From NCBI GenBank assembly GCA_007376535.1, contig VMGK01000005.1, forward strand, positions 2,085 through 66,084: 64,000 bases of DNA, given 5' to 3'. Under the pieces are notes generated by a model that saw only the letters and a program-made list of their open reading frames with translations, had not been told where the DNA came from and made no database searches. The translations under genes and the position numbers were made by a program. The DNA is from Candidatus Berkelbacteria bacterium Licking1014_7 (GTDB lineage Bacteria > Patescibacteriota > UBA1384 > GWA2-35-9 > CG2-30-39-44). Shown piece by piece: positions 2,912 to 57,110 of the stretch. Each line of letters begins with the position of its first letter. Position 1 is the stretch's first letter.

Positions 2912-3205
2912 CCCTGTGAAATTTGTAAATTTTTGAAGATAAGATGAAATTTTATTATACTTATATCCTTAAAAGTATAAAAGACAATAAATTGTATACT
3001 GGTTCAACAAAAAATTTACAAGAACGATTTGAGCAACATTGTAAGGGAAAAGTTTTTTCAACTAAGCATCGCAGACCATTAGAATTGATATACTATGAAG
3101 CTTGCTTAAATGAAAATGATGCTCGTCGCAGAGAAAGAGTATTCAAATCTTACAGAGGTAAAATGTTTATAAAAAGAAGGCTCAAATCGTATTTCACAGG
3201 GTAAA
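2912..3205 (+). mobile_element. 294-bp GIY-YIG nuclease cassette bounded by 11-bp perfect inverted repeats CCCTGTGAAAT / ATTTCACAGGG
   Basis: Inverted repeats at 2912-2922 and 3191-3201. The segment length is a multiple of 3 and removing it restores the LamG remnant frame precisely. Confidence 0.55.
2944..3204 (+). CDS. GIY-YIG domain nuclease (UPF0213/YhbQ-like small stand-alone GIY-YIG protein)
   Basis: YTYILKS...KLYTGSTKNLQERFEQH...RRPLELIYYE...RRRERVFKSYRG matches the GIY-YIG motifs (GIY, YIG, Arg and Glu core residues). Confidence 0.75.
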   Translation: MKFYYTYILKSIKDNKLYTGSTKNLQERFEQHCKGKVFSTKHRRPLELIYYEACLNENDARRRERVFKSYRGKMFIKRRLKSYFTG

Positions 3206-3316
3206 ATCGCGCCCTCATCGCCGCCGAAGTCCAACAACTCTACAATTCCTACTAATCCCATTATTCTCTTAAACTTTTATACTCTTACACTTTGAAACTT
3301 TACCCTTGTATACTAT

Positions 3317-3413
3317 GAACCCATTGCAAATCTCTCCAATCTACTACAATATGCCACATTTGGCTACAAAATACTCATCGTTCGTCATCGTCCGCCTTGG
3401 CGGATGCTTCCTC
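3317..3413 (+). mobile_element. MITE copy, 5' half only (terminal repeat GAACCCATTGCAAA), abutting and truncating the four-helix-bundle gene
   Basis: 97 bp nearly identical to 21725-21821 and 24893-24988. Confidence 0.6.
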
Positions 3414-3696
3414 TTCCGTCTCAGTGATGAGCAATCTCGCCGAGGGTTTTGAGCGCGGAACGCGCGAAGATCAAATTTATTTTTACTATATCGCCAAAGC
3501 ATCAGCCGGTGAAGTTCGTTGTCAGCTTTACATCGCGTATGACCAGAATTTCATTACAAAACAAGAATTAGACGATAACCTTACTCTTTGCAAAAAAACT
3601 TCCGCCACAATTTACCGCTTCATTGAGAGTGTAAAAGTTTCAGAGTATAAGGGTTTAAAGTTCAGAAAACCGATTAGAATTTTGGAAAAATTATGA
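3397..3696 (+). CDS. Four-helix-bundle protein (23S rRNA intervening-sequence protein family), N-terminally truncated. The first codons derive from the MITE
   Basis: SNLAEGFERGTREDQIYFYYIAKASAGEVRCQLYIA fits the IVS four-helix-bundle consensus. The usual N-terminal half is missing. Confidence 0.5.
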   Translation: MADASSSVSVMSNLAEGFERGTREDQIYFYYIAKASAGEVRCQLYIAYDQNFITKQELDDNLTLCKKTSATIYRFIESVKVSEYKGLKFRKPIRILEKL

Positions 3697-6637: not shown

Positions 6638-6760
6638 ATTAAATTAAAATTAAGAATGCAGAATGAAGAAATTAAATTATAATTAAGAAATTTTTGATTT
6701 GCCTGCCCTGCCAGAATGAAATCTACCGCGCCCGCCAAAGTGAAATCTAATTTGAGAAGA

Positions 6761-6801
6761 CCTGCCCGCCATCGCTATCGCTCAGGCGATTAGCAGGCGG
6801 G
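6761..6801 (+). repeat. REP-like nested hairpin CCTGCCCGCCATCGCTATCGCTCAGGCGATTAGCAGGCGGG
   Basis: Homologous copies at 7067-7107, 31930-31970 and, inverted, 46944-46984. Confidence 0.6.
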
Positions 6802-7169
6802 GGAATTATCACCTAATTCTGGAAGAGATTGAATGCGGGCGGGGTTATTTCAATTCTTAATTCTTCATTTTTATTTCTTATTTTGCATTTGCATTATAGC
6901 ATAAAATGGATTACAATAAAATAAAATAAAGCAATCTCAAATCTCAAATTTCAAAACATTAAAAAGATTTAAGAATATAGAATAATCCTAATTATACGAC
7001 TGACGCAAAACTACCTTTTTATATTTTCTTGGATAATCGCTAAAAGCAATCTCAAAATCCAAATCTCCCGCCCGCCATCGCTAGCGCTCAGGCGCTTAGC
7101 GGGCAGGCAAATCTCAAAGTGTAATGCAATGTCTAAAATAAAGGGGATTAAACCGCATTTTCAAATATT

Positions 7170-13111: not shown

Positions 13112-15382
13112 TCACAAATCCACCTCATAGCCATTTCCATCGGCTAAAATCCAGACCTTTTTACCTTTGTGATCCACTTGGAAACAAGTGGGTTTTTTGA
13201 TTGCGGGAGGAAAAAGATATTGTTTTAAGTAATTGCCGTCTTTGTCAAATTCTAAAACGCGCGCTTTGGTTTGGTCTAAAATATAAAGTGAAGAAATGGA
13301 TTCAGCTGTGTAGATATCAATCGGATTGGATAAATCATCAAACGTTTTGGGTAGATTTTTAAGTCGAAAATCAGTGGCCGCGCCCTTGCTAATTTTCAGG
13401 ACTTTATTTGGTAAAAGCGCGTAAATAGAATTGTCAATCGTAAGCGCGACTGCTTTTGACATCTGGTTTGCCAGCGCCGAGCCAGTGTAGGAGACCGGGT
13501 CTTGATAATTATTTTCGTTTTTGTTAAATTTCCAGATTTTCGCATCTTTTGCTGAAAACGCGTAAATATTGTCGGCAAAAATATCAAAATCAATCAGCGC
13601 GCCAGTTTTATTTTGAGGGAGATTAAGAGCGATTAGCCGTTCGTCCTCAGCATTGAAATTGTAAATTTCTCCGGCCTGAGTTAAAAGGTAAAAATGGCGA
13701 TCGTCAAATTTGATAAGGTCTTGCCATTTGCCAGCAATGGATGGAATTTCTTGCTTTTTACCAGATAAGATATTGATTTTTATAATTTTTTCATTTTCCA
13801 AAAGAAAGGCAGAGCCCTGAAAGGTGAACATTTTTTCACCTTTTAAGTCCGTGGCAAAGGGCGTCAAATTGAAATATCTTTTTGTCTGAGTGATTGAGTC
13901 GGCTTGATTGCTGGCTTGGCTGATAATTTTTTCCGCTTCGGTTTTGTACTCAGAGTTTTGAATTTTTTGCGCCAAATTTATCGCGTTTTCAAAAAGTTCA
14001 GTTGCAGTTTGCTTATCAGATAAAATTAAAGCGGATTTTCCTTCATCTAATTTTTTTTGCGCTTGGGATAGTGTCTCGGACTTTTGTTGGCTGGCAAGTT
14101 TTTGCGCTTGTTTTTTTCTTTGCACGCTGATAGAAACGATTAAAACGAAAATCAGTGTTACGGCGCATATCACAATCATTAACGGTCGTTTTTTGCTGGA
14201 TGAGTAATTTTTTCTAAAAAAATACCAAGCATTGTCGATTTTGATAATTACTTTTTTAATTGTTTGGTTGGCGGTTCTGACAATTTTTTTTGCGCTTGAT
14301 GTATGCTCATTTCTGTAATCATTGATGGTATAAATCGAGCGACCGATAAATGAATCGTTTTTGGTTGACGCGATTTCTGCCCCGTCCTTTTTAATTTTAA
14401 CTAAATTATCTCCAATAAATTTTTTGGCGCCGCCGCCGGTTTTTTGAATGATGGGTTTGGCTTTTTGAAAATATTCGCGCGATAATTGCCGAGAACGGTC
14501 TGACGCGGTTTTTAGAAATTTTTTACTTTGGGGAAGGTAGCGCGTTTTTGTCTTATTGATGCTGGCTTTGAGGTACTGATGGGTGTTTTGTCCGGTTTTC
14601 TTAACCCAGGGCAAAATATATTTTTTAGAAAATTTTATTGCTTGGCTCAACGCTGAGGCGGATTGTTTATCAACCGTCAGTTGAATATCTTGCACGGCTT
14701 GGTTTTCTACCGGGATTTCGACATTAAGAGTAAAAAAAGCGATCGCTTTGTCGCGCGTTTTTTTGAAGAAAGTAAAAATGTTTTCGCCTGCTTCAATAAA
14801 GTTTTGATTTGCGAAAAATTGCTTGACGATTTGCGAGGATAAGTGATTAAGCGCTTGAGAGTTGGCAAAAATTAATAAGTCGTTTGCATCAATGGAACCA
14901 GATGTGATATTAGAAAAGGTTTTAAGCGGATGGGGTCCGATAATTTGAATTTTTGAGTCAACAATTTCTGAAATTTTGTCATTGCGAATCAGCCAGGTCT
15001 TGATTTTTCCCGAGGTAGCAAGGTGTACTTGGTTTTGGATAGATAAGCAAAATATTGCGTTGAGGTTGCCGATCCAGCTGGTTTCGCCGTTTTGGCTGAT
15101 ATGCGCCAATGTTTCGTTAACTGACTTGAGCGCTTGTTCAAAATTCTGCAAATCAGAGGTGGATTCGCCAGAATAATAGGCGCGTTTTAGGGTATTAAGT
15201 ATGGTCTGTCCGATTTGGCGGTGGATTGAAGTGGCTTGCAAAATTTCTAACAAAACATAGATTTTGCCCATTTCCTGATGAATTTTGTCAGGCGATTCTA
15301 AAATTTGAGCCGTGATAAAACGCCCGGGAATTTGTCCAGAGTGTAAAATTTTGAGCGAGTTGAGGGTGAGGTTTTTGAGCAT
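13112..15382 (-). CDS. Large hypothetical membrane-anchored protein (single mid-protein TM, coiled coil, C-terminal β-propeller-like repeats)
   Basis: TM segment RPLMIVICAVTLIFVLIVSISV. Repetitive β-strand-rich C-terminus. No confident family. Confidence 0.45.
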   Translation of the reverse strand: MLKNLTLNSLKILHSGQIPGRFITAQILESPDKIHQEMGKIYVLLEILQATSIHRQIGQTILNTLKRAYYSGESTSDLQNFEQALKSVNETLAHISQNGETSWIGNLNAIFCLSIQNQVHLATSGKIKTWLIRNDKISEIVDSKIQIIGPHPLKTFSNITSGSIDANDLLIFANSQALNHLSSQIVKQFFANQNFIEAGENIFTFFKKTRDKAIAFFTLNVEIPVENQAVQDIQLTVDKQSASALSQAIKFSKKYILPWVKKTGQNTHQYLKASINKTKTRYLPQSKKFLKTASDRSRQLSREYFQKAKPIIQKTGGGAKKFIGDNLVKIKKDGAEIASTKNDSFIGRSIYTINDYRNEHTSSAKKIVRTANQTIKKVIIKIDNAWYFFRKNYSSSKKRPLMIVICAVTLIFVLIVSISVQRKKQAQKLASQQKSETLSQAQKKLDEGKSALILSDKQTATELFENAINLAQKIQNSEYKTEAEKIISQASNQADSITQTKRYFNLTPFATDLKGEKMFTFQGSAFLLENEKIIKINILSGKKQEIPSIAGKWQDLIKFDDRHFYLLTQAGEIYNFNAEDERLIALNLPQNKTGALIDFDIFADNIYAFSAKDAKIWKFNKNENNYQDPVSYTGSALANQMSKAVALTIDNSIYALLPNKVLKISKGAATDFRLKNLPKTFDDLSNPIDIYTAESISSLYILDQTKARVLEFDKDGNYLKQYLFPPAIKKPTCFQVDHKGKKVWILADGNGYEVDL

Positions 15383-15478
15383 AATAATCAAATCAAAAGT
15401 TATAAGTCCCCGAAGACAATGTGCTATCACTTGGCTTCAATCCTACGGATTGTAAAATTTTTGTAGCATTCATAGTTT

Positions 15479-16066
15479 TTATTTCTCCCAAATTATATGG
15501 CAGTTGATATTGTGTTTCTCATAATCTTTTAATACATCGGCGCAAAAATCCATCAACTCCTTATTTTTCTCGCTTTTGGCCAATTCATATAAACGAATAA
15601 ACATCTTTTTACCAGTTTCGGTCTGTTTGAGGTGTTTTTTAATAAAGTTGTGTTGAGCACATAAGGTCTGTCCATTTTCAACTATTGCTTTACCGCCTTC
15701 ATATCTTGATTTAATGTGATCAACTTGTAACTCAACTCCATCCTCTCTGCCTCGTCCACACAGGACACATTTATAGTCATCTCGTTTTAAGATAAATTCT
15801 TTTTGTTCAGGTGTAAAATCCTCTAAAATTCGTTGATTGACCATTTCGGGATCATATCTATATATTCCCTTATTTACTTTAACCAAAAAACCAACTTCGT
15901 GAAGATTTCTAATTGATCGCCAGGTATCTCTCGGTTTTTTATTATAAAGCCGCATGTACTTTGCTTCAACCCAATCAACAACTGGACCGTGTGGCATATC
16001 CTCTTTTGGATGTGCCTTGAAGTATTCAATAAGCAGGTCTCGTATTGATTTGTTTTTCTTTTTCAT
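15479..16066 (-). CDS. HNH endonuclease (probable restriction endonuclease partner of the adjacent methyltransferase)
   Basis: CVLCGRG...ELQVDHIKSRYEGG...NGQTLCAQHN (HNH with zinc-finger cysteines). Start at MKKKNK. Confidence 0.7.
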   Translation of the reverse strand: MKKKNKSIRDLLIEYFKAHPKEDMPHGPVVDWVEAKYMRLYNKKPRDTWRSIRNLHEVGFLVKVNKGIYRYDPEMVNQRILEDFTPEQKEFILKRDDYKCVLCGRGREDGVELQVDHIKSRYEGGKAIVENGQTLCAQHNFIKKHLKQTETGKKMFIRLYELAKSEKNKELMDFCADVLKDYEKHNINCHIIWEK

Positions 16067-16074
16067 AGTTATTA

Positions 16075-16914
16075 TTAAGTTAATAAATTTGGTTGATCTA
16101 TTTTTGCTTCTACCCGTAATCGCCTGATTGCTAAATCGCAATATTCTTTGTCAATATCAACACCAATTCCTTTTCTGTTGTGCAAATATGAAGCAATAAG
16201 CGTTGTTCCGCTACCCAAAAATGGGTCCAAAACTGTATCACCAATAAAACTAAATAATTTTATACATCGTCTCGGCAATTCAACCGGAAATGGCGCAGGA
16301 TGTCCGCCCGCCCCCTTTTTACTTTGGCCGGAGAATGTCCAAACACCATTTGTCCAATCCATAAATTCCTGCTTTGTAATGTCATTTTTCCTACTCCCGC
16401 CAGTTTTTTTCCAGCTGTCTTTATATAAAACTAAAATCAATTCAACAGGGGCAATGACATAAGGAGCTGAGGCAGACATATATGAACCCCAAGCGGTGCG
16501 GCGAGAAATATTTCCCTCGTTCCAGATAATCGTTGAGTGATATTTCCAGCCAATATCTTTTGCGATTTTTGTAATATCAGCGCCGACTGATTTTTGGCCA
16601 CCTTTATTTTTATCAAGAGGAATATTTAGCAAAAATCGTCCTTCCTTTTTTGCTAAATCAAAACATTTCTTAATCCATTTTTTGGTAAATTCTAAATAGT
16701 CTTCGTAAGTCAAATTGTCAGCGTGGGAATTGTAATGAATGTCAACATTATAAGGCGGTGAAGTAATAATTAGATCAACTGAATTTCCGGGTATGGCTGT
16801 AATCTTCAAAATATCGGCTTTGAAAATAGAAATTCCGTCTTTTTCAAAATATGGTTTTTGAGATTTCATCTCATCAATATTGCTAACTTGTTTTTCCGCC
16901 ATTATATTTTGCAT
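16075..16914 (-). CDS. β-class N4-cytosine/N6-adenine DNA methyltransferase
   Basis: Motif IV IITSPPYN near the N-terminus and motif I DPFLGSGTT near the C-terminus (N6_N4_Mtase order). Confidence 0.85.
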   Translation of the reverse strand: MQNIMAEKQVSNIDEMKSQKPYFEKDGISIFKADILKITAIPGNSVDLIITSPPYNVDIHYNSHADNLTYEDYLEFTKKWIKKCFDLAKKEGRFLLNIPLDKNKGGQKSVGADITKIAKDIGWKYHSTIIWNEGNISRRTAWGSYMSASAPYVIAPVELILVLYKDSWKKTGGSRKNDITKQEFMDWTNGVWTFSGQSKKGAGGHPAPFPVELPRRCIKLFSFIGDTVLDPFLGSGTTLIASYLHNRKGIGVDIDKEYCDLAIRRLRVEAKIDQPNLLT

Positions 16915-17204
16915 AAAATTTTTGTGATAAGCACAGCAACAGGGTTTATATCAATAGCAATTGATGGTCGTCCCATTACTTTTGATTCAACAAGCGTTGT
17001 GCCGCAACCACCAAATGGATCAACAATAGAATCACCCTCTCGCGTATATTTTTCCGCTAAGCGAGAGACAATTTGCGGAATAAACTTTGCGGGGTAGCGA
17101 TGATAGCCGTGCGTGATATACGTCGTGTCCTTCCTTGTTTTATCGGAAAAAGACCACGAATAATCAATTTTTGTCTTTGCGAGTAATGTTGTTATTTGTC
17201 TCAT
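16902..17204 (-). pseudogene. C-terminal fragment of an N6_N4 DNA methyltransferase (AdoMet-binding half only)
   Basis: HRYPAKFIPQIV...DSIVDPFGGCGTT...IAIDINP corresponds to the last ~100 aa of the N6_N4_Mtase domain. No DPPY motif. Confidence 0.5.
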
Positions 17205-17378: not shown

Positions 17379-17723
17379 TTATATCACTTGTAATTCCATC
17401 TGTAAATTTTTTCTCTCCGCTTTCCCCGTCTTAAACAAATTCGCTTTTTCATCCAATTCTTTTATTCTTCTTTCGGAAATTTTGACATACTTTTCGTTAG
17501 TATCAATTCCAATATTTTTTTCCCCTAACTTTTTTGCTGCCACAGCAGTTGTTCCGCTACCCATAAACGGATCAAAAACTAAATCACCCTTATTGCTTGC
17601 GGAAAGTAAAACTTGCTGAATTAACTTGAGCGGTTTTTGCGTTGGATGTGCTTTTATTCCATTTTCATCTCTTAATCTTTCTTGCCCTCTATACACACCA
17701 AAAACCCAATCAGTATCTTTCAT
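17379..17723 (-). CDS. Stand-alone C-terminal half of an N6_N4 DNA methyltransferase (HPTQKP...DPFMGSGTT)
   Basis: AHPTQKPLKLIQQVLLSASNKGDLVFDPFMGSGTTAVAAKKLGEKNIGIDTNEKY. The catalytic DPPY half is absent. 4-nt overlap with the upstream Bro-N gene. Confidence 0.5.
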   Translation of the reverse strand: MKDTDWVFGVYRGQERLRDENGIKAHPTQKPLKLIQQVLLSASNKGDLVFDPFMGSGTTAVAAKKLGEKNIGIDTNEKYVKISERRIKELDEKANLFKTGKAERKNLQMELQVI

Positions 17724-18562
17724 TTGTTATTCAAGTTTTTTCTTCTCTTTGCTTTCAGTAAATAATTTTTATTCGTCGGAACTTTTTTACCGCTTTTTCT
17801 TTCCAAATCTTTTCGTGCTTTGCCGGCTACACTTCCGCCTTCTTGCGCAACAATTTTATTTTCATTAAAACCTTGGGCATTTTTATTTTGAGCAATTTCC
17901 GTTGTTGACGCCTCTCCGAGCATTGAAAAAATTAACTCCAAATCATTCATATGATCTCGTAAATTCTCTCGCTTGAGTCCTTTGAATTTCTGATATTCGC
18001 TCGGCGTCATTCCAAAAGTTGCTTCGGAAATTTCAGCGGTTAAAATCGCGTATTCTTGGCCTTCCCTTACATCTCGTTTTTTCCATTCATTAGTCAGTGT
18101 TTCGCGAACTTCAATACCTCGCATCCTTTTTTCTATCCATGTATCAGAATATCCTTTGGCTTTATAAAGAGCTCGGGTTCTCTTAGTGGCTAACTCGGGG
18201 TCTTCAATTTCCTGTATTCTTTCATAGCCAACTCGAGCCAACCAACGTTTAAACGGTTCAGCTTTTGGCGACGGAATTGATTGAATAATGCGGAAAATGC
18301 CTTCCGTATTAGCGCTGGTTATCTTTCTTTTTTTGCCATCTTTAGCCACCATCTCAAGGAGGGGACAATTTGTCCCCCAGTAGACATTTAGCTCTTTGTC
18401 TCTCTTTCTCATCTTTTTTATATAATCTCTAACATCTACTGTATCGGTGAGCGCCCCAACTACATCCGCAACCGAAAACCACCATTCGTTTTTATGAATG
18501 ATTTTGCGAATTTCCTTTTTTTGGAAAATGGCAATTTTTGTAGTCGTAATTTTTCTGTTCAT
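17720..18562 (-). CDS. Bro-N domain protein (DinD / phage antirepressor-like)
   Basis: EWWFSVADVVGAL Bro-N signature. The C-terminal part resembles DNA-damage-inducible protein D. Confidence 0.55.
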   Translation of the reverse strand: MNRKITTTKIAIFQKKEIRKIIHKNEWWFSVADVVGALTDTVDVRDYIKKMRKRDKELNVYWGTNCPLLEMVAKDGKKRKITSANTEGIFRIIQSIPSPKAEPFKRWLARVGYERIQEIEDPELATKRTRALYKAKGYSDTWIEKRMRGIEVRETLTNEWKKRDVREGQEYAILTAEISEATFGMTPSEYQKFKGLKRENLRDHMNDLELIFSMLGEASTTEIAQNKNAQGFNENKIVAQEGGSVAGKARKDLERKSGKKVPTNKNYLLKAKRRKNLNNK

Positions 18563-18722: not shown

Positions 18723-18795
18723 TCGGGGTAGCCGGACTCGAACCGACGATCTTCGGACCCCCAGCCCGACGCTTTACCAACTAAGCTATACCCCG
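18723..18795 (-). tRNA. tRNA-Pro: tRNA-Pro (anticodon GGG)
   Basis: Cloverleaf read by hand: acceptor CGGGGTA/TACCCCG, D-loop AGTTGGTAA, anticodon loop CTGGGGG, T-loop GGTTCGAGTCC. No encoded CCA. Confidence 0.8.
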
Positions 18796-18912: not shown

Positions 18913-20022
18913 TTATTGATGCAAGCCGTTACTGAGTTGTTGTCTAATGCGTAAAACCTCAGCGGCATCAATTGCGTCTTGGGTTGCTTCGGTTTCTATT
19001 CTGGCTAATTCAGTATCTACTAATGCGGTAGTGTCTGTGTTTCCCAGAGTAGATAATTCTTTAAGTAATTGTTTCGCCTCAGCGATTCTTGTATGAATTA
19101 CTTGTTTTGCATCTTCGGTTTGAGATAAACGCAATTCATGTTCTAATCTTACAATTTGACTTGTGATTTGTCTTTGCAATTTGCCAAATTGTTTTGTCAA
19201 ATCATCGTTGCCCAATTGTCTGCGCCATTTTCTGCTTTTTAATCTTCTGGTAATTCTGTAGTAAAGAAAGCCCAAGTCAAATGATTTGGTTGCGTCGAAA
19301 GACCGCTTGATGAGCGCGCTAACTAGTCGGAATGTTCTAAACAAGATATAAACAATGCCGTCATAAAGAGCGACGATTAATATTCCGGGAAGTGAAAAAA
19401 TCATTACGATAGTAGAACTGATTACAGATAATCCGTTCCAAAATTCGCGTAATCCGCATCCCACACGTAGATATAAACCCAAAATCAATCCGCCCAATGC
19501 CCAAATAGTCAAGGGAAGCGATTTCCAGTGGCTATGTTTAAGATATGTTGGCGGTTTTAGCTTTTGAACCTTTTTGATCATATCTTGGGCATTAGTTTTG
19601 CCCAGCGCTACTTTTTCAAATTCAGGCGATTGAAGGTAATCGGGATTAACATTTGCCAACACAAATTGTAGTGCAGCCAATTGTTTTTTGGGGTCTTTTT
19701 CATCCAAAAGGGCTTTGGTTTGCCTGCCTCGCTCAAAGGCAATAATCGTGTCCTTTGGAGAATTTTTGGGGATCTGAATACCAACGTATCCTTGCCAAAA
19801 AGCGTTATTGTCAACAGCGGTTTGATAGGTTTCATATTTTCGCGTGAATTCTTGTCTTGTGTCATAATTGTCTATGCCTTTCGAAGACGAACAAAGCAAC
19901 GGCAGCACAATTATACAAACAATTATTAGAACTGAAAATTGTCCAAAAAATTCTGTATATATGGCTTCAGAAAATTTTAGATAATTTTTTTCTTTTGTTC
20001 TTCCTTTTGTTCTCATTGTCAA
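18913..20022 (-). CDS. Hypothetical membrane protein (N-terminal TM, two central TMs, C-terminal coiled coil)
   Basis: Hydrophobic segments plus a heptad-rich C-terminus. No family recognised. Confidence 0.4.
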   Translation of the reverse strand: MTMRTKGRTKEKNYLKFSEAIYTEFFGQFSVLIIVCIIVLPLLCSSSKGIDNYDTRQEFTRKYETYQTAVDNNAFWQGYVGIQIPKNSPKDTIIAFERGRQTKALLDEKDPKKQLAALQFVLANVNPDYLQSPEFEKVALGKTNAQDMIKKVQKLKPPTYLKHSHWKSLPLTIWALGGLILGLYLRVGCGLREFWNGLSVISSTIVMIFSLPGILIVALYDGIVYILFRTFRLVSALIKRSFDATKSFDLGFLYYRITRRLKSRKWRRQLGNDDLTKQFGKLQRQITSQIVRLEHELRLSQTEDAKQVIHTRIAEAKQLLKELSTLGNTDTTALVDTELARIETEATQDAIDAAEVLRIRQQLSNGLHQ

Positions 20023-21067: not shown

Positions 21068-21279
21068 CGTCCCGACAAAATGTCGGGATGAGCGAAAACA
21101 ATGAGGGGCGACGAAGCGTTGTGGGTCTGTCAACAAATATGCTTTTGTAACGAAAATTGACAAATTTGTAACGAAAATTCTTAAAAGCGACGATGTTTAT
21201 CAGTTTATGATAAGCAGAGGAGCTTTTGAGGATTTGCAGTCAAAGTTGTCAATTTGCAGTCAAAATGATATTTGTTGGC

Positions 21280-21374
21280 AGACCCATTAATGGAATATAG
21301 CGTAAGGAGCCCTGAATTGTTTGCAGCCAAAATTACTATGTTGTAGTAGAAAAGGTTATTTTGCAGTGGGTCTA
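21280..21374 (-). mobile_element. Short (about 95 bp) inverted copy of the MITE
   Basis: GACCCATTAATGG ... TTGCAGCCAAAATTACTATGTTGTAGTAG ... TTGCAGTGGGTC. Its internal core is the reverse complement of the 21725 copy. Confidence 0.45.
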
Positions 21375-21659: not shown

Positions 21660-21724
21660 AAATTAAATTCTATCAGATAAATAAAAATTGTCAAAAATTG
21701 TTGGTTCTGCTATGATGGTTATAA

Positions 21725-21877
21725 GAACCCATGGCAAATCTCTCCAATCTACTACAATATGCCACATTTGGCTACAAAATGCTCATCGTTCGTCATCGTC
21801 CGCCTTGGCGGATGCTTCCTCACGTTTCGTATTTTTCGCTCAAATGTGATCATATTTCGCTACGATTGAGAGTTTTG
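21725..21877 (+). mobile_element. Complete MITE (153 bp) with 14-bp terminal inverted repeats GAACCCATgGCAAA / TTTGCAATGGGTTC
   Basis: Terminal inverted repeats with a single mismatch. Internal CCGCCTTGGCGG hairpin. Homologous copies at 3317, 24893, 29093, 29291 and others. Confidence 0.7.
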
Positions 21878-21904
21878 CAATGGGTTCTATGGGAGAATTC
21901 AAAT

Positions 21905-22627
21905 ATGCTTAATTTTCTGAGAGAAGAAATATACTCGTATCTGTTGATTGGCGATGAGAAAAATATTTTTGAAAATCTGATTCAGGCGCTCAGGCAAAAA
22001 GGAGTGAAGCAATACCAGATTCTGGATATATTGGATAGAGAGAAATCAATCATAACCATTGGTTGCGTCAGAAAGTTGAGAAAACAAATCAGCCAAAAGC
22101 CGTTTGACCAAAAAGATGTCTGGTATTTACTAATGAGGGCAAGTTGGCTTAAACATCCGGGCGGAATCGCAACACAAAACAGTTTGTTAAAAATTATTGA
22201 AGAGCCGCCCAAGTTTTTAAAAATTTTAATTGTTTGTCAGGATCCGAGGTTGATTTTGCCAACGATTGTGTCTCGTTGCGCGCGCGTTAGAATTGCCAAT
22301 GTCGGCCAGACCGCTATTTCCGTTGGCGAAAAAAATATTGATTTAAGGGATTTGGCAAACAAAAAATATTTTGAGATTTTTCAGTTTTCTCAAAAATTTG
22401 CCACAGATGAAAATTTGGCGGAAAAAATTGATAATTGGATAAAAGAATTTGGTAAGGGGTTGACAAAAGAAAGCGGGCGGGTTATGACAAAGAAAAGGCA
22501 AAGAATTCTAAAAGCGCTTTTGAAGGCAAAGGAGCATTTAGTAGAAACGAATGTAAACCGCAGATTGCTTTTGGATAATTTATTTTTAAAGATTAAAGAA
22601 TCTGACAGATTAAGATCCGTACAATAA
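21905..22627 (+). CDS. holB: DNA polymerase III delta' subunit-like (clamp-loader AAA+ with degenerate P-loop)
   Basis: LLKIIEEPP and TIVSRC sensor motifs. Start moved to MLNFL, downstream of the MITE. Confidence 0.6.
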   Translation: MLNFLREEIYSYLLIGDEKNIFENLIQALRQKGVKQYQILDILDREKSIITIGCVRKLRKQISQKPFDQKDVWYLLMRASWLKHPGGIATQNSLLKIIEEPPKFLKILIVCQDPRLILPTIVSRCARVRIANVGQTAISVGEKNIDLRDLANKKYFEIFQFSQKFATDENLAEKIDNWIKEFGKGLTKESGRVMTKKRQRILKALLKAKEHLVETNVNRRLLLDNLFLKIKESDRLRSVQ

Positions 22628-22630
22628 AAA

Positions 22631-23245
22631 ATGACATTTGAAATTATTATCATCTTGGCGGTAGCAATTATTTTTGTTATTTTGGTGCGTAAAATGCCTG
22701 ATGAGAGCGCGCAAAATTTAATAAAATCAGTTAAACCAAAATGGGGTTTTAGTTTGCCGAGCATAAAATTTGATTTGCCGAAAATGCCCAGATTTTCCAG
22801 TTTATCCCGCTTAGCGGGGTTAATAAAAAAAGAGCGCTCTAAGCAAAATTTTGATCCGTTTGAAGAAGAAAAGGAAAATTTGCCAGACGAGCAGAAAAAG
22901 GAATTTGACATTGAGAAATTAAAACAGGCAGATGATTGGTTGGCAGAAGGGAAAATGGACGAGGCGGAAAAAATGTATGTGCAACTTGGCGCTGAATTTC
23001 CCGGAGAACTGAGGATTTTCAATCGTTTGGGCGTGGTATATTTGAAACAGAAAAATTTTGCCGACGCGCGCGACAGTTTTTTGCAGGCGTTGAAAATTGA
23101 TGACACTCAGGCCAGCCGGCATTATAATTTGGCAATGGCATATTTGGGAATGGGGACGCGGGAAAAAGCCAGAGTATGTTTTAAGAAAGCGATTGAGATA
23201 GATCCCGGGCGAGAAAAATATCAAAAAGCGCTGGAAAAAATATAA
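22631..23245 (+). CDS. TPR-repeat protein with N-terminal TM anchor
   Basis: N-terminal hydrophobic helix and three TPR-like repeats (A..Y..G.....A...F..A). Confidence 0.6.
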   Translation: MTFEIIIILAVAIIFVILVRKMPDESAQNLIKSVKPKWGFSLPSIKFDLPKMPRFSSLSRLAGLIKKERSKQNFDPFEEEKENLPDEQKKEFDIEKLKQADDWLAEGKMDEAEKMYVQLGAEFPGELRIFNRLGVVYLKQKNFADARDSFLQALKIDDTQASRHYNLAMAYLGMGTREKARVCFKKAIEIDPGREKYQKALEKI

Positions 23246-23409
23246 GAGCCTGTCTGATAACTACTCTTGAAGCGAGAACGAGATTATTTTAGGCGAAAAA
23301 TGTGAATTGCGAGGAAAGATAGCCAAAGCTACCTTGACGAGTAATTCGCATTTTGCAGCCAAAATAAGTTATTCGCAGCTATCAGATGTAGTTATTAGAC
23401 AGGCTCTGA
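23246..23409 (-). mobile_element. MITE-family variant with 19-bp terminal inverted repeats AGAGCCTGTCTGATAACTAC / GTAGTTATTAGACAGGCTCT
   Basis: The inverted repeats flank 164 bp whose core (TTTTGCAGCCAAAAT...) matches the MITE in inverse orientation. Confidence 0.5.
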
Positions 23410-24627: not shown

Positions 24628-24892
24628 GTTGGTAAAAGAAGAGTTTGGCTCGGTCGCCACAGGCGACCTCGCCAGCCGATTTTTGGTTCAAAATCAAATT
24701 TTTTGCCTTTGTCCCCCACTAAATTTTAGTGGGGGACGCCAGAAGCGGGTTTTTCCTTAAAGTCCGCACAAAGCTTGGCTTGACCCGAGACGATTTAGTG
24801 AGAAAGTCAGCCGTCCAACACACAACCCTTACAAAAATTGAGAGTAATGTGATGAGAGTAATGTGATTAAAAAACCGTCGGTTATTACTCTG

Positions 24893-24988
24893 AACCCATT
24901 GCAAATCTCTCCAATCTACTACAATATGCCACATTTGGCTACAAAATACTCATCGTTCGTCATCGTCCGCCTTGGCGGATGCTTCCTC
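24893..24988 (+). mobile_element. MITE copy (5' half) between tRNA-Trp and the methyltransferase gene
   Basis: About 97% identical to 3317-3413. Confidence 0.6.
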
Positions 24989-25006
24989 AGACTTGATTAA
25001 ATAAAT

Positions 25007-26013: not shown

Positions 26014-26673
26014 ATGAAAAGTCAAATATTTTACGCAGATGAGTATAAAAAATTAGAAAAGAAAATCACCGAGTTTCTTAATTCTCAAACTGATTTTTTA
26101 TCTCCACGCACAATCGACAGCCCTCGAGCTGTCGGCGACGCAATACAGGATTTATTGGCAGATAATTTTGGTAAAATTCTAGGCGATTTAAGCTCAAATT
26201 ATTCTTCGGATTTTGCCAGACGCGCCATGGCGGATTTAGCCTTTAATGACAAAGATGGGTTTTATTATGTTGTTGATGTAAAAACCCATAGATTAGATTC
26301 AAGTTTCAATATGCCAAATCTTACATCAGTTGAAAGATTGGCAAGATTTTATGAAGATGATAAAAATTATTTCATAGTATTAAAAACCGATTATAAAATT
26401 CAAAAAACAAAAATAATTATAGACAAAGTTAATTTCGTTCCGATTGAATTTTTGGGCTGGGATTGTTTGACGCTTGGTGCTCTCGGTTGGGGGCAAATAC
26501 AAATCGCTAATTCAAATAATGTTAGTATAGTTGCTAAAAACAGCAGAAAAAAGTGGATGTTGGAATTATGTGATTCTCTTTTTGAATTTTATCCAAGAGA
26601 GATTGGAAAAATAAACGACAGAATTTTATATTTCAAGCGTGTTAGAAAATACTGGGAAGGTAAAAAGGGATAA
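26014..26673 (+). CDS. Putative type II restriction endonuclease (PD-(D/E)xK)
   Basis: Begins 3 nt after the methyltransferase stop. D...VDVK arrangement (DLAFNDKDGFYYVVDVKTH) fits PD-(D/E)xK. No other homology recognisable. Confidence 0.5.
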   Translation: MKSQIFYADEYKKLEKKITEFLNSQTDFLSPRTIDSPRAVGDAIQDLLADNFGKILGDLSSNYSSDFARRAMADLAFNDKDGFYYVVDVKTHRLDSSFNMPNLTSVERLARFYEDDKNYFIVLKTDYKIQKTKIIIDKVNFVPIEFLGWDCLTLGALGWGQIQIANSNNVSIVAKNSRKKWMLELCDSLFEFYPREIGKINDRILYFKRVRKYWEGKKG

Positions 26674-29092: not shown

Positions 29093-29290
29093 GAACCCAT
29101 TTCAAAAATCCATATATTGCACATCCATCGTCTGGCTGAATGGGCAGCTGCAACAGCAGATATTCTGGCTGCAAAGATTAGAATAATTCGTCAACAGAGC
29201 TTCTGGCTATGCTTCCTCATTATTCTAACTTTTCGCTCATAATCTCTACTGTTTCGCTCCTCAATCAACCAGACGATGGATGTGGGTTCT
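29093..29290 (+). mobile_element. Complete MITE copy (about 198 bp)
   Basis: Begins GAACCCATTTCAAA and ends GGATGTGGGTTC. Confidence 0.55.
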
Positions 29291-29424
29291 TTTATCTGCT
29301 ATTTTGGCTGCAAACAATTCAGAGCTCGTCAGTGTCCGCCAAGGCGGATGCCTTCTCGCTCTTCATTGTTTTCGCTCAAAATATCAAATAAAATTATCAA
29401 AAGAGAGTTTTATAATGGGTTCCT
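29291..29424 (+). mobile_element. Second, 5'-truncated MITE copy in tandem. Its 3' terminal repeat TTTTATAATGGGTTC contains the ATG of the downstream gene
   Basis: TTTTGGCTGCAAA ... TCCGCCAAGGCGGATGC ... TTTCGCTCAAA ... ATAATGGGTTC. Confidence 0.55.
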
Positions 29425-31862
29425 ACAATTCGTTTGAGAATTTTATTCATAAAATAAAAAGGCGAACTTATTTATCGTTATTTTTGTCGGTTTTGGTGGT
29501 GGTTGGTTTTGGCGCGGGATTGATTTTTTGGTCTAAAAATGTTTCACGCGGGGCGACTACTTTAAGTGGAACTATCAATGGCTTACGGACAATTAGCGGA
29601 GACGCGGTGATCAAGACCAACCAAACAGTCACTCACGATCAGGGAAATACTACCGGAGGAACAGGATTGGGAGTGAATGTGAGTGGCACTTTAACCTTGG
29701 AAGCCGGCGCCAAAATTGATGTGAGCGGGAAGGGATATAAGGGGGGATATATTTTTTTTAGCATGAATAATATAGGTGGTTATTATTATACAGCTTTATT
29801 TCCGGCTAAGGGAAGCAAGGATGGCAACGCTCCTCAACAGCAAAATCAAGCTGGTGCCGGCGGAGACTGGGAAAATGGCGGGGCAGGCGGCGGCACAGGA
29901 TATAGAACGGCAAATAGACTGGGCGTTGGCGGCGGCGGCGGCGGCGCGTTTGGCTATGGCTCAGGCGGAAAAACCAACCATTCTTCGGCAAGCCCTGGAT
30001 GTTATGGCGGCGGCGGCGCGGGCTGGAAAGGCAAGGGCGGGGCAGGCGTTTGTTCTGGATCGGCGGTTAACGGTGCAGTAAGCGCCAGCATAAATTTTTC
30101 TAATGACAGTTGGTATAATAACGAGATTCTTTTTGGCGCTGGCGGCGCCAGCGGATTTACCATTACGCAGGATAACTCGGAGGGTGATGGCGGCAACAGT
30201 GAATGCGTCAAAGGCGGCAATGGCGGAGGGGCGGTAAAAATAAAAGCCAAAAAATTAAAAATTGAATCCGGGGCAAGCATATCGGCGGCAGGAAAATCGG
30301 GCGGAAAAATGTGCGATCTGGCTTATAGAGTAAAGTGGTTAACTTTTGGACAATTTACTTTGGGAGCGGCTGGGGGAGGCGGAACAATTTATATTGAGGT
30401 TGACGAATTGGAATTGCCTAGCGGTAATGATTATAATTTTGATGTTTCAGGCGGCGATGGTTGGGGGGCGCTGAGCGGGTCGATGTGGGCATCTTCCGGA
30501 GCAGGAGGCGGAGGGATAGTTGTAATTAGAATCGCAGGGGGAGGAAAAATAAAAATCGGGAATAATTATGTAGATAACTTTGCGACGGTTTACGCCAGAG
30601 CAGATTCCAACAAAGGCATGCTTCGCAATATCATAAACGATGTTTATATTTTAACCCAGAAAATACCTGATAGTGCTTGGGGGGGAGACGGCAAAGAAAT
30701 TTTTGCCGGCAATCCGACCATTCCCGGTGGTTCCACCACCTGCGACACATCAAAAATTAAATTGACTGATCCGTCGTTTTCCAGCCAACCGGCGGCGAAT
30801 TCTCATTACCAGCGCGGTGATACTTTTTCCTATAAGGCGCAATATATTAGTCAAGACAGCGGTTCAAATTGTTCTGGCAAGTATCAATTATATTTCCAGA
30901 CCGCTTTATCAAATGATTTAGAATTTATTGGTGGCAGTAAATTGACTCCCGGAAATTTAGATCCAACAATAGGTGGCGGTTTATTTTCAACTCAACATTG
31001 GGAAGTAAATTCAGCCGGTTCTTACACTGGTGATATTAAGATAAAAATAAAAGATAATGCTTGCAATCAGGCAGGCGGCGGCGTTGAGAACAAAATTCAA
31101 ATTTATCAAAAATACGATAATGGTGTGCTGATGGCGCCATCATCAGGAAATCCAGTTTACTCTAATGCGAATATAATTGTTGATTGTCCGGGCGTGGCGA
31201 TTTCCGGCAATGTTGGCGCAAGCAGTATAACTACGCCCGATCTAAAAATTATCGGTAATTCAGTGGTGGCGATTACGGGTTCCTCGTCAGCCACGCTTGA
31301 TTCACAAGTAGTAAATTTATCTGGTTATACCCATTCAATCAATTTTTCCGACATAAATACAAATTTTGAAGCGCTAAAAACCCGGCGGGCAATTAAGCCG
31401 AATCCTTGGACAAATAATTTTAATTTGAATAAGTACAATAAACCCGAAGGTGGAGTGTGGAAAGAACATCCTACCCCTATGAATAGAACTTTTCTGCAAG
31501 GGTCGCGAGGCACGATATTTCATACTGGCGATTTGACAATAGATGGAATTTCTTGGCAAGGCGCGACGGCTGGTGTTTTGGGCATCGTGGTGAAAGATGG
31601 TAATGTGATGATCAAAGATTTAAATTTAAAAAATGTGGCGATTTACGCGTACGACACCGGTGGCGCGGAAGACGGAAAAATCACTTTTGGCACGGGCGCA
31701 ACGGACGAAACATTAGACATGACCGGTTCGTTTGTCGCTAAAAGCATTGAAATTAAAAGTAAGAAGGGTAATATTAAACATTCGGACGGATTAGATAAAA
31801 ATCCTCCGCCCGGATTTTCTAACTTGCAGTCGCAAATAAAAATTTTAGAAAAAGCGCGGTAG
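29415..31862 (+). CDS. Large glycine-rich secreted/surface protein (N-terminal signal anchor, predicted β-helix/adhesin-like)
   Basis: TM segment LSLFLSVLVVVGFGAGLIFW followed by long GGxGGxG tracts and NxxG repeats. Confidence 0.55.
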   Translation: MGSYNSFENFIHKIKRRTYLSLFLSVLVVVGFGAGLIFWSKNVSRGATTLSGTINGLRTISGDAVIKTNQTVTHDQGNTTGGTGLGVNVSGTLTLEAGAKIDVSGKGYKGGYIFFSMNNIGGYYYTALFPAKGSKDGNAPQQQNQAGAGGDWENGGAGGGTGYRTANRLGVGGGGGGAFGYGSGGKTNHSSASPGCYGGGGAGWKGKGGAGVCSGSAVNGAVSASINFSNDSWYNNEILFGAGGASGFTITQDNSEGDGGNSECVKGGNGGGAVKIKAKKLKIESGASISAAGKSGGKMCDLAYRVKWLTFGQFTLGAAGGGGTIYIEVDELELPSGNDYNFDVSGGDGWGALSGSMWASSGAGGGGIVVIRIAGGGKIKIGNNYVDNFATVYARADSNKGMLRNIINDVYILTQKIPDSAWGGDGKEIFAGNPTIPGGSTTCDTSKIKLTDPSFSSQPAANSHYQRGDTFSYKAQYISQDSGSNCSGKYQLYFQTALSNDLEFIGGSKLTPGNLDPTIGGGLFSTQHWEVNSAGSYTGDIKIKIKDNACNQAGGGVENKIQIYQKYDNGVLMAPSSGNPVYSNANIIVDCPGVAISGNVGASSITTPDLKIIGNSVVAITGSSSATLDSQVVNLSGYTHSINFSDINTNFEALKTRRAIKPNPWTNNFNLNKYNKPEGGVWKEHPTPMNRTFLQGSRGTIFHTGDLTIDGISWQGATAGVLGIVVKDGNVMIKDLNLKNVAIYAYDTGGAEDGKITFGTGATDETLDMTGSFVAKSIEIKSKKGNIKHSDGLDKNPPPGFSNLQSQIKILEKAR

Positions 31863-32121
31863 TCAAATATAAATCAAAAAGCAAATCCGCCAGCTGGCGG
31901 ATTAATCTCAAATCTCAAAATTCAAATCTCCCGTCCGCCATCGCTATCGCTCAGGCGATTAGCGGGCAGGCAAAATGACAATCCAAAATTCAAAACTCTA
32001 AATCCTAAATTCTAAATTCTAAGAAAATTATGTTCCCCATTTTCAACAACATCAATCACCAAAAATTTGACAAGCAAAACGGTTAGGTTGTATAATAGAG
32101 TTAATCAAAAGGAGAGGGAAA

Positions 32122-33596: not shown

Positions 33597-33736
33597 GATA
33601 GAAATTCAAATCTCAAATCTCAAATCTCAAAGCCACAGCGTAAAACTTAAAACCATTTTAAATTATCTAAGTTTTTACATTTGAGTTGTGGTTTTGAGTT
33701 TTACGTTTTAACATTTATGATTAAATTAATGTCATT

Positions 33737-36093: not shown

Positions 36094-36272
36094 TAGAAAT
36101 TGAAAATTGAAAATTGATGTGGAATGTTTGAAAATTGTGTTATTGAAAATTGATTGAAAATTGAAAATTGAAAATTGAAAATTTCTATATAGATAGTTTT
36201 AAGTTTTACGCTGTGGCTTGGATATTTTACATTTTACTTTTCAGATATAAAATATGTTATAATGAATTCATT

Positions 36273-38447: not shown

Positions 38448-38730
38448 TAGTTTAAAGTGAAATTTTCAATTTTCAATTTTCAATTTTCAATGAATTCTCA
38501 ATGTTCAGATTGAATGAATTAAATCAAACAGCCCCGAAGATAAATTTCAAAGTCCAAATTTCAAATATCAAAACATTAAAAAGATTAATGAAACCCCCGA
38601 CATTCTAACTTTTAATCCGCCAGTGGGCGGATGGCGGACATTCTTAAATCTAACATCTTAAATTTTAAATCTGTAAAACTTTTACTTTTTGCTGTTTGCA
38701 TTTTGGATTTTGACATTTACTCAAGGGATT

Positions 38731-45062: not shown

Positions 45063-45149
45063 ACAATCTGGGCTCGCAATAACCAAAATAAAAAAATTTG
45101 ACAATTTTTTGTTTTTGTGTAATAATGGAATAGACTTCTTCCGGAATAA

Positions 45150-45300
45150 TTTTTCGTAGCGAAACGCAGTAATTTTGAGCGAAAATTGTGAAGAACGAGG
45201 AAAGGTATATGGAATATCCATTGACGAGTTATGAACAATTTGCAGCCAAAATTACAAGTTGTAGTAGAAAAGGTTATTGTGGAAGAAGTCTAACAAAAAA
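45150..45300 (-). mobile_element. Degenerate inverted MITE copy downstream of the pilus operon
   Basis: TTTGCAGCCAAAATTACAAGTTGTAGTAG and GCGAAAATTGTGAAGAACGAGGAAAG match the MITE core in reverse. Confidence 0.4.
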
Positions 45301-46849: not shown

Positions 46850-47044
46850 ATTTCAATTCAACCAGAATTTCAATGTTAGATGCTATATTTTAGAATATTA
46901 AAATGATATTCAAATTTTTAGAAATAAATTTTAAATTTTACATTGTCATTTTGCCTGCCCGCTAATCGCCTGAGCGATAGCGATGGCGGGCGGGAGATTT
47001 GTGTCTTACATTTTGAGATTGAGGCAATTTCTATCAAATCAAAT

Positions 47045-52461: not shown

Positions 52462-52641
52462 ATAAATCAAATATCAAAAATTAAAAATCAAAATGACATA
52501 TCAAAAATTAAAAATATTTTTACATTTTAATATTTGTTTTTGATATTTGATATTTGATATTTGATTTATTAATAATAGGGAAAATAATTTCCACCATTGT
52601 TGATTAAAAATAATACAACAAAAACCTAAAATAATAATTTT

Positions 52642-56468: not shown

Positions 56469-56882
56469 TTATAATTGTTTCTCTCTAATCTCTTCCTCAA
56501 TTCTCTTTTTGCCCAATATATTAGATAATAGCCAATATCTGATAGTTCCGATGTTGGCGAAAATTCTCAATGTAAAGACGATTATCACCGCCAAATATAA
56601 ATCCAAACTCAATTTGTCTCCCAAGTAAGTAATAGCGACAGCCAGTATCATATTAAAAATTAAACCAGAGACAAAAATTGAATGATTATATTTATGTTGC
56701 AAGTCCGCGCGCATCGCGCCGAATATTGAGTCCAGTATGCCTAAGATTCCAATGGCGGTATAGCGCGTAAATTCAATCGGTATTTCGTAAGGCAGCCACA
56801 CGCCCAGCGCAATTCCGATTATAAGACCAAATAATGCAAACCACATAAATGCTCCTTTCGTCGCATAAATTCCAAATTCCAA
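56469..56882 (-). CDS. Small basic protein (DUF1290/Sbp-like)
   Basis: Two TM helices and ILDSIFGAMRA ... YLGDKLSLDLYLA, as in Sbp/YlxX. Confidence 0.55.
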   Translation of the reverse strand: MEFGIYATKGAFMWFALFGLIIGIALGVWLPYEIPIEFTRYTAIGILGILDSIFGAMRADLQHKYNHSIFVSGLIFNMILAVAITYLGDKLSLDLYLAVIIVFTLRIFANIGTIRYWLLSNILGKKRIEEEIREKQL

Positions 56883-57110
56883 ATTTCAAATCTTTAATTT
56901 GAAAATTAGAATTTTTAAATTGTTTATAATTTGTTACTTATGATTTGTTATTTATTTGACTTTCGTGGTCAAATTAACAGGCTAAAACGCTCAAAATTGC
57001 GCTCTCAAGCGTTTTTTACATTATAGCCGACTCTTTGTATATCCGCAAGCGTTTTTTAATAATTTTTAATTTTTCAAATATTCTAAAATCTAAAATCCAG
57101 TTTCTAAATT

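Follow-up and report, generated by a model that had tools for sequence, protein, structure and literature searches.

A hairpin-forming repeat shared by bacteria of the Candidate Phyla Radiation, probably a non-autonomous DNA transposon

Introduction

Among the short repeats of bacterial genomes, the ERIC/IRU elements of Enterobacteriaceae and the Correia elements (NEMIS/CREE) of Neisseria are intergenic and non-coding, measure about 100-200 bp, have inverted termini, form a long imperfect hairpin and have no identified transposase (PMC10969869, PMC3184786). Both are co-transcribed with their neighbours, occur as subtypes and in nested copies, and can affect the genes next to them, and Correia elements duplicate the short A/T target TA (PMC10969869, PMC3184786). 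The same set of structural properties characterizes the repeat that we describe here from a 64,000-nt stretch of the genome of Candidatus Berkelbacteria bacterium Licking1014_7 (contig VMGK01000005.1, positions 2,085 to 66,084; hereafter the window), a member of the Candidate Phyla Radiation (CPR, or Patescibacteria). Organisms of this radiation have tiny, streamlined genomes that are usually described as poor in mobile DNA. A first-pass annotation of the window, made from its sequence, had proposed a family of MITEs (miniature transposable elements with inverted repeats) with at least seven copies. Our analysis leads us to regard the family as probably a non-autonomous DNA transposon of this type, specific to the CPR; it would be a new MITE family, akin in kind to ERIC and Correia.

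The differences from these two systems are nevertheless substantial. The CPR element has no sequence similarity to either, duplicates 3 bp and not TA, is spread over a superphylum and not a genus or family, carries variable termini around a fixed core, and has no strong internal promoter that we could detect. REPINs, which are mobilized in the REPIN/RAYT system, resemble it as abundant intergenic hairpin repeats of about 100 nt that are maintained over long evolutionary times, but they are REP doublets without a duplication and depend on a single-copy RAYT, whereas the CPR element has duplications and no RAYT-like neighbour was seen. The BOX, RUP and SPRITE repeats of pneumococci are likewise small, intergenic, clustered, inserted in one another and modular in appearance (PMC10969869), yet they are unrelated in sequence, host range and architecture. 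What makes the CPR family unusual is its radiation-wide spread, the fixed asymmetric internal loops amid covarying stems, and its doubling as an intervening sequence of ribosomal RNA. In the searchable literature, nothing relevant was returned for MITEs of CPR or Saccharibacteria, or for the motif strings themselves.

Results

A repeat family with hallmarks of transposition

Within the window, the 14-mer terminus GAACCCATTGCAAA has six matches at up to two mismatches where 1.34 are expected, a count that none of 100 shuffles reaches, and a core pattern of three motifs (TGGCTRCAAA, 10-13 nt, TCGTCA, 25-50 nt, TTTTCGC) matches five times where no match is expected. With both patterns far above chance and all seven copies of the earlier list present close to where they had been placed, the repeat family is real. 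A census with a covariance model built in this analysis, R1, and run without filters gives a total of nine copies or fragments in the 64 kb, which we designate A to I: A, D, G, H and I are full, B, C, E and F fragmentary.

A scan of GTDB with the core pattern, all three motifs being required and each species being represented by one genome, yielded at least 113 loci (numbered with the prefix L), and among the matches listed about 105 are true elements. About six in all were judged to be chance matches lacking every other feature of the family (L002, L016, L027, L031 and L079), and L036 is doubtful. The record titles of the listed loci comprise Saccharibacteria/Saccharimonadales, Parcubacteria/Paceibacterota, Moraniibacteriota, Berkelbacteria and Minisyncoccia, together with Kaiser-, Falkow-, Uhr-, Kuenen-, Magasanik-, Shapiro-, Campbell-, Taylor-, Peregrini- and Peribacteria; a few metagenome-assembled genomes (MAGs) are titled Bdellovibrionales or Gammaproteobacteria, labels that we do not trust. 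Several genomes have 4-7 copies among the retrieved loci, to which a search of the fetched loci with R1 added a few slightly deviant ones, and ten further copies, all complete, were found in JGI metagenomes with a pattern for the left half only. The core pattern had zero matches in 2.9 million IMG/VR viral contigs, and blastn of copy H had zero against PLSDB plasmids and GenBank phages. Similarity between genomes can be high: copy G and a copy from a further Patescibacteria MAG (L071) share 84% identity, and copy H shares 87-88% with copies from a MAG labelled as Saccharibacteria (L035, L060, L108). A confinement of the copies to the window, which the first-pass annotation had named as evidence that would count against a mobile family, is thus contradicted by the occurrence of the family in more than 100 other genomes. 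Its other reservation, that the copies could be conserved leaders of paralogous genes, does not hold either, as the neighbouring genes are unrelated housekeeping genes and no neighbour is conserved.

The copies bear several marks of insertion. When the 3 nt immediately outside the first and the last paired base are taken as flanks, the two triplets are identical in 24 of 62 copies, as compared with 5.3 expected by shuffling, and the duplicated triplets consist of A and T only (TAT 12, TTA 10, TAA 7/3, as well as ATT and AAT). The enrichment of identical, A/T-only flanks shows that the element inserts at A/T triplets and duplicates 3 bp. In the window, the flanks of copies G and H match at two of three positions. 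A filled and an empty site can be compared at ftsZ, where a copy with TAA/TAA flanks lies upstream of the ftsZ promoter in L065 and the corresponding spacer of L010, whose FtsZ is 84% identical, is empty. Near-identical copies occur on many short contigs in several MAGs, and copies are found nested in or abutting one another, as for D/E and F/I in the window and for tandem copies in L005. Together with paralogues that are 95-99% identical, the duplications, filled and empty sites and nested copies bear out the earlier assignment to non-autonomous, MITE-type elements.

A conserved hairpin with fixed internal loops

Full copies measure about 160-165 bp; a second, longer form of about 185-205 nt carries, in its left arm, an additional branch of 25-45 nt. 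Terminal stems are 16-24 nt long in about 95 copies, and the terminal inverted repeats, of 16-20 bp, usually start with G[A/G]RCC. Read 5' to 3', the left arm comprises the terminal repeat and TCTACTGCAA, then, beyond a stretch of variable sequence, TTTGGCTGCAAA, about 11 further variable nt and CTCGTCA. A short hairpin of variable sequence comes next, and CTTCCTC, some 10 variable nt, TTTTCGCTCAAA, another variable stretch, TTTCGnnACGAAA and the other terminal repeat complete the element. The impression of a conserved core with variable termini stems in part from the scan, in which three core motifs were required; the nearly invariant CTTCCTC and the two outer motifs are conserved although the scan did not require them. 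Each arm contains two degenerate subterminal motifs of about 12 nt (...CTGCAAA on the left, TTTTCG...AAA on the right), and the motifs of the two arms form degenerate inverted repeats, with fixed positions at which left and right differ. In copy I these are evident as doublings, of TTTGACTGCAAAT on the left arm and of TTTTCGTTACAAA on the right, and the apparently conserved loops are therefore two copies of a subterminal motif per arm. The element has no coding capacity: its apical region varies by 1-nt steps, so that no reading frame is conserved. A small open reading frame (ORF) on the minus strand behind GAGGAAG was considered and discarded, as the hairpin length is not divisible by 3 and start codons at a fixed spacing are lacking.

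For the structure, we aligned 69 distinct short-form copies, 4 from the window and 65 from other genomes, with MAFFT. RNAalifold folds this alignment into one rod-like hairpin of 47 pairs, 40 of which have compensatory double changes. Standard pairs occupy 89.3% of the cells, which 0 of 500 shuffles reaches, as opposed to 63.6% with shuffled partners, and pairing falls to 33-46% when the partner is slid by 1-3 columns; the covariation score is 0.646 versus 0.18. Helix 1 of the consensus comprises 18 pairs, with 89% of its cells paired, and conserved asymmetric internal loops interrupt the stems. Copy A forms a rod on either strand; compared with shuffled sequences, it folds with z = -6.3 as DNA and with z = -7.8 and -7.4 as RNA on the two strands. 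Among 3229 cells, G:U combinations (88, 2.7%) are no more frequent than A:C combinations (145, 4.5%), and intermediates are rare. The pairing looks Watson-Crick and DNA-like rather than RNA-like, a trait that is only suggestive because the copies are not independent. The same dependence applies to strand asymmetry, which is mixed, the terminal stem and stem 3 favouring the minus strand and the apical hairpin the plus strand. In Rfam 15, the window copies had no match at the gathering threshold nor at E values up to 10.

The copies of the window

The reference element, copy A (21725-21887, plus strand, 163 bp, 146.6 bits with R1), is bounded by the terminal repeats GAACCCATGGCAAATCTCTC and GAGAGTTTTGCAATGGGTTC and flanked by TAA and TAT. 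It had been described as ending at 21877, with a length of 153 bp, but its right repeat TTTGCAATGGGTTC occupies 21874-21887 and moves the end to 21887. Between the repeats lie TCTACTACAA (21748-21757), TTTGGCTACAAA (21767-21778) and TCGTCA (21790-21795) on the left side, the apical hairpin TCCGCCTTGGCGGA (21799-21812) with CTTCCTC (21815-21821), and TTTTCGCTCAAA (21833-21844) and TTTCGCTACGA (21855-21865) on the right side. Copies B (3317-3413) and C (24892-24988), also on the plus strand, consist of the 5' part only, 97 nt each, B ending directly after GCTTCCTC; over this stretch A, B and C are 95-99% identical.

Two adjoining copies on the plus strand had been placed at 29093-29290 and 29291-29424; both exist, with slightly different ends. 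Copy D has a full core (29093-29289; 115.6 bits at 29117-29287), and its terminal repeats CACATCCATCGTCTGG and CCAGACGATGGATGTG, at 29120-29285, lie within an outer GAACCCA...GGGTTC. Copy E (29290-29422; 74.9 bits over model positions 32-148) lacks a left terminal repeat of its own, and its right one, GAGAGTTTTATAATGGGTTC, pairs with the outer left piece, 29093-29119. Either D is nested in an element that continues as E, or D has a 20-nt insertion in its left terminal repeat.

The other four copies lie on the minus strand. Copy F is a 5' fragment (21280-21373) that extends from its left terminal repeat AGACCCACTGCAAAATAACC through TTTGGCTGCAAA and runs into copy I, with which it has the hexamer GGGTCT (21280-21285) in common. 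Copy I itself (21123-21285, 103.6 bits, terminal repeats GGGTCTGCCAACAAATAT and ATATTTGTTGACAGACCC) is full but diverged and is the one copy that the earlier list had overlooked. Copy G (23246-23406, terminal repeat GAGCCTGTCT, 134.7 bits) is full and begins directly 3' of the TAA stop codon of a TPR gene (23243-23245), 135 nt ahead of tRNA-Thr. Copy H, also full (45132-45291, terminal repeat AGACTTCTTCC, 150.9 bits), is located between a PilX-like gene and a ribosomal protein L10 leader (RF00557, 45287-45428, 46.6 bits). The leader starts in the final bases of H, which places H just upstream of, or touching, the leader of rplJ.

The GAACCCA terminus is clear in A, B and C and degenerate in D and E, while the same interior is framed by other termini in G, H, F and I, which start with GAGCCTGTCT, AGACTTCTTCC, AGACCCACTGC and GGGTCTGCCAAC, respectively. 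The 14-bp terminus is thus not the family-wide feature for which it had been taken. At least four subfamilies are present in the window, mutually 68-82% identical.

Placement relative to genes

That several copies adjoin or overlap gene starts, as had been noticed at the outset, is correct; in copy E the right terminal repeat indeed holds the ATG (29415) of an 815-aa ORF. From this it had been proposed that the element targets the 5' ends of genes or supplies promoters. Counting the gene context of 95 copies in about 90 genomes, we find instead that gene ends are adjoined as often as gene starts and that orientation is unbiased. At the left end, a co-directional gene's end is found in 41 cases and a diverging gene's start in 38; at the right end, a gene start is found in 41 and a converging gene's end in 35. 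Between co-directional genes, 22 copies are sense and 18 antisense, and there are 13 divergent and 12 convergent settings. For half of all element ends, the nearest start or stop codon is no more than 15 nt away, and many copies of the AGACC type end in ...GAGGTCT-TAT-G, with an ATG directly after the duplicated triplet. This tight abutment is better accounted for by insertion at A/T triplets, which are frequent at TAA stops and before ATG (TATG) in the very short spacers of CPR genomes.

Nor do the data support a promoter function: copy A contains only one weak sigma-70-like match (9/12, 21731-21758). Promoter-like sites in the region number 35 compared with 25.3 after shuffling (sd 5.6), which is not clearly above expectation, and a better site lies upstream of copy A at 21688-21716. 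The start codon of holB is most likely the ATG at 21905, behind its own GGGAG and outside copy A.

Copies inside 23S rRNA genes

Two of the about 105 listed copies, at 4025-4188 of L044 and 2292-2460 of L067, are located inside bacterial large-subunit rRNA as delimited by Rfam, both antisense to the reference orientation of the element. Direct alignment shows the L044 site to be uninterrupted in the 23S genes of L102, L067 and L076. The L044 flanks map to adjacent positions of Escherichia coli rrlH, at about nt 925-935 in the loop of the small hairpin CCGGAGAAUGUUAUCACGGGAG, and the site is therefore empty there too; the mapping shows that a placement in helix 45 is wrong. The L067 copy lies just 5' of about nt 1585-1600 of the E. 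coli gene. The 23S gene of L044 (2675-7611) is expanded to 4.9 kb and also holds a group I intron (RF00028, 6112-6408).

In the known intervening sequences (IVSs) of 23S rRNA, a helix tip is replaced by a long stem-loop with inverted termini, which RNase III excises, and the suspicion that they are remnants of transposition is an old one (PMC4990558). As in the IVSs of Salmonella, Leptospira, Coxiella and Campylobacter, the two copies replace a hairpin tip or variable region of the 23S rRNA by a stem-loop of inverted termini, and by analogy they may be removed by RNase III. Unlike IVSs, which classically occupy helices 9, 25 or 45, they are found at about nt 925-935 and 1585-1600; the element moreover has no S23p ORF, and most of its copies lie outside rRNA. 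Insertions of at least 100 nt are present in 77% of CPR 23S genes, a high insertion load of rRNA genes into which these copies fit (PMC9297842).

Truncated copies and contig ends

In copies B and C, the sequence of the element breaks off after CTTCCTC at one and the same base. An independent ENA contig from the same organism, L001, is 100% identical to the window over 11.7 kb and contains copy C at full length; relative to it, the window lacks 104 nt at this copy, namely the 3' half and 39 nt of flank. L001 itself starts inside copy C (L001 1-176 versus window 24918-24989). Copy B is fused to a gene for a four-helix protein of the 23S_rRNA_IVP family that lacks profile positions 1-37, its N-terminal third, and a right half downstream of this gene, which would point to a cargo-carrying element, is absent. 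We considered, and rejected, the half element as a natural mobile unit, as C is complete in L001 and no half copy occurs among the 113 GTDB and 10 JGI loci inspected. The truncations of B and C are either real one-sided deletions from a fixed internal site or errors of MAG assembly. MAG contigs that begin or end inside copies (L001, L047, L059, L068, L090, L098) indicate that the repeats fragment CPR assemblies. The truncated four-helix gene forms, with the ORF region upstream, the interval 2944-3696; the 86-aa ORF just upstream of copy B (2944-3204) has a weak N-terminal match to a GIY-YIG 'group I intron endonuclease'.

The search for a partner enzyme

In agreement with the first-pass annotation, no transposase was detected in the window; none was found in a Pfam/NCBIfam search of its larger ORFs, of which those at 18913-20022, 26014-26673 and 29415-31862 have no family match at all and that at 13112-15430 only weak, sub-threshold NCBIfam matches. 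Clustering of 1089 flanking ORFs revealed no recurrent family, the maximum being 7 of 113 loci for a glycosyltransferase, and no multi-copy ORF. A search for inverted-repeat pairs 0.5-3.5 kb apart returned MITE pairs around ordinary genes and two IS481/rve-like elements in L049 and L054, which are the only insertion sequences (ISs) seen; they are of the rve type, with termini unrelated to the MITE. The IS of L054 (6239-7146, 908 bp, terminal repeats TCAATACCTTGGAATCA) is apparently missing in L092, a related MAG, at the orthologous spacer, as judged by ORF and spacer coordinates. In L028, L053, L074 and L094, inverted MITE pairs bound segments of 1.5-2.7 kb in a layout like that of composite transposons; the genes of these segments are ordinary ones, encoding a glutamate dehydrogenase, a TauE-like exporter, a methyltransferase and a pyruvate kinase fragment.

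Other repeats and a putative island

A second repeat family, unrelated to the element, consists of the GC-rich hairpin CCCGCCCGCCATCGCTAGCGCTCAGGCGCTTAGCGGGCAGG with runs of AAATCTC-type heptamers alongside; its copies, at 6742-6805, 7048-7111, 31904-31995 (plus strand) and 46929-47020 (minus strand), are 88-96% identical. Short, heptamer-like tandem runs (AAATCTC, GAAAATT, TTTGATA) occur in many intergenic spacers, for example at 1246-1329, 33602-33664, 36095-36192, 38459-38502, 52461-52571 and 56863-56917, and give rise to many spurious families of direct or inverted repeats. The segment 15479-20022 resembles a decayed restriction-modification or mobile island at a tRNA gene. It comprises an HNH endonuclease (15479-16141), an N6/N4 DNA methylase (16075-16914), methylase fragments (16902-17204 and 17379-17723), a Bro-N protein (17720-18562), tRNA-Pro (18723-18795) and the 369-aa ORF without family match (18913-20022).

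Discussion

What can be concluded about the nature of this repeat? It is shorter than 500 bp, non-coding, multi-copy and mostly intergenic, has inverted termini and flanking direct repeats, and is polymorphic for presence and absence; the definition of the prokaryotic MITE relies on the same traits, namely its size, inverted termini, flanking direct repeats, A/T targets and transcripts with a stem-loop (PMC10969869). We envisage that the element is moved in trans by a transposase of the DDE type that makes 3-bp staggered cuts, as the 3-bp duplications suggest. The conserved loops could be binding sites for the transposase or for a host factor, and Watson-Crick-only covariation might reflect a requirement at the DNA level or a homogenization of the arms. 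Effects on neighbours, be they hairpins in 5' untranslated regions (UTRs), a GAGG or AGG at the element end before an ATG, or an RNase III-type removal from 23S rRNA, would be by-products and not the purpose of the element. The enzyme may possibly be similar to those of IS5/IS1031 or PIF/Harbinger. In IS5 (IS1031/ISL2) and the 'Tourist-like' MITEs of PIF/Harbinger, the duplication is 3 bp and A/T-rich and GAG/GGG...CTGTT termini occur, to which GAGCCTGTTT in several subfamilies of the CPR element may be similar. The triplet spectrum of the latter is broader than the TNA/TWA expected for these groups, TAT, ATT and AAT being as common as TTA/TAA, and no IS5-like or Harbinger-like transposase was found in the window or the loci inspected.

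Several observations sit uneasily with a MITE. A perfect duplication is missing from 38 of the 62 copies, including all copies of the window and both rRNA insertions. Neither a cognate transposase nor a long autonomous form was found in the window, in the 113 GTDB loci (about 0.8 Mb) or in the 10 JGI loci. Conservation is higher in the interior than at the termini, contrary to what a textbook MITE shows, albeit partly by ascertainment. A cut-and-paste mechanism on duplex DNA needs no covariation of internal stems. Finally, copies of different CPR phyla are 84-88% identical where shared housekeeping proteins reach only 27-61%, so that either repeated horizontal transfer or selection on the whole sequence is needed to account for them.

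Other explanations were also considered. The repeat might belong to the structured non-coding RNAs, as a family of cis-regulatory elements or small RNAs that is multi-copy by chance, with the hairpin and an exposed, anti-Shine-Dalgarno-like CUUCCUC loop acting as RNA. The strong covariation around conserved unpaired motifs would suit this, as would RNA folding at z of about -7.5, the near-invariance of CTTCCTC without its having been required by the search pattern, and the certain transcription of the copies in 23S rRNA genes and 5' UTRs. We nevertheless consider it unlikely: wobble pairs show no excess on either strand (2.7% G:U versus 4.5% A:C), orientation to flanking genes is unbiased and no gene context is conserved, Rfam offers no match even at permissive E values, and target-site duplications, empty sites, nested copies and truncated fragments are present. 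The Watson-Crick-only covariation, the whole-element hairpin and the fixed asymmetric bulges, which recall attC sites or the ends of IS608, would fit an element recognized as folded, single-stranded DNA, in the manner of REPINs moved by RAYT (HUH) enzymes or of palindromic elements derived from IS200/IS605, a proposal that also agrees with the failure to find a DDE transposase. Yet REPINs and IS200/IS605 elements have neither a target duplication nor inverted repeats that reach the very ends, whereas 3-bp duplications are enriched here, and no recurrent RAYT- or TnpA-like gene emerged from 0.8 Mb of flanking DNA, as judged by clustering only and not by profile search; we hold this explanation to be just as improbable as a functional RNA.

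The resemblance to attC sites could also be taken literally, the copies then being recombination sites of an integron-like or other site-specific system, with hairpins between cassettes. Imperfect hairpins with unpaired bases are indeed typical of such sites, and several window copies precede cassette-like genes (a methyltransferase, the neighbourhood of an AbiEii toxin, the four-helix bundle protein). However, the Pfam/NCBIfam search of the larger window ORFs revealed no integrase, the ends have the form G[A/G]RCC...GGYYC without RYYYAAC/GTTRRRY boxes, and copies occur in both orientations, next to housekeeping and rRNA genes and with 3-bp duplications, which makes this by far the least probable explanation. 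The duplications, the random orientation and the absence of wobble pairs agree less well with any of these three proposals than with a MITE. Somewhat less remote, though still doubtful, is the possibility that the element is not a simple deletion derivative of an IS but a hairpin module under structural constraint, common to the superphylum, with fixed asymmetric internal loops that a CPR-specific protein recognizes in folded DNA or RNA. If so, it would represent either a hairpin-dependent transposition system of a new kind or a domesticated module, such as an entry site for RNase III or a generator of rRNA IVSs; it would have spread by exchange among CPR lineages and would be a direct source of part of the CPR rRNA insertions.

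Our preferred reading remains that of a MITE, and the family has practical consequences for work on CPR genomes. One repeat family is common to most major CPR lineages, reaches nine copies within the 64 kb of the window and breaks assemblies, the contig ends of CPR MAGs often falling in its copies. Gene starts inside the repeats call for care in annotation, as for the 815-aa ORF, the ORF that runs from 21731 into holB and the truncated four-helix gene. The covariance model R1 can be used for a census. The high identity of copies across phyla suggests that DNA is exchanged within the radiation or that the element is under selection. Finally, with the same family bearing the hallmarks of a transposon between genes and occupying hairpin loops of 23S rRNA, the transposition origin of 23S IVSs becomes testable.

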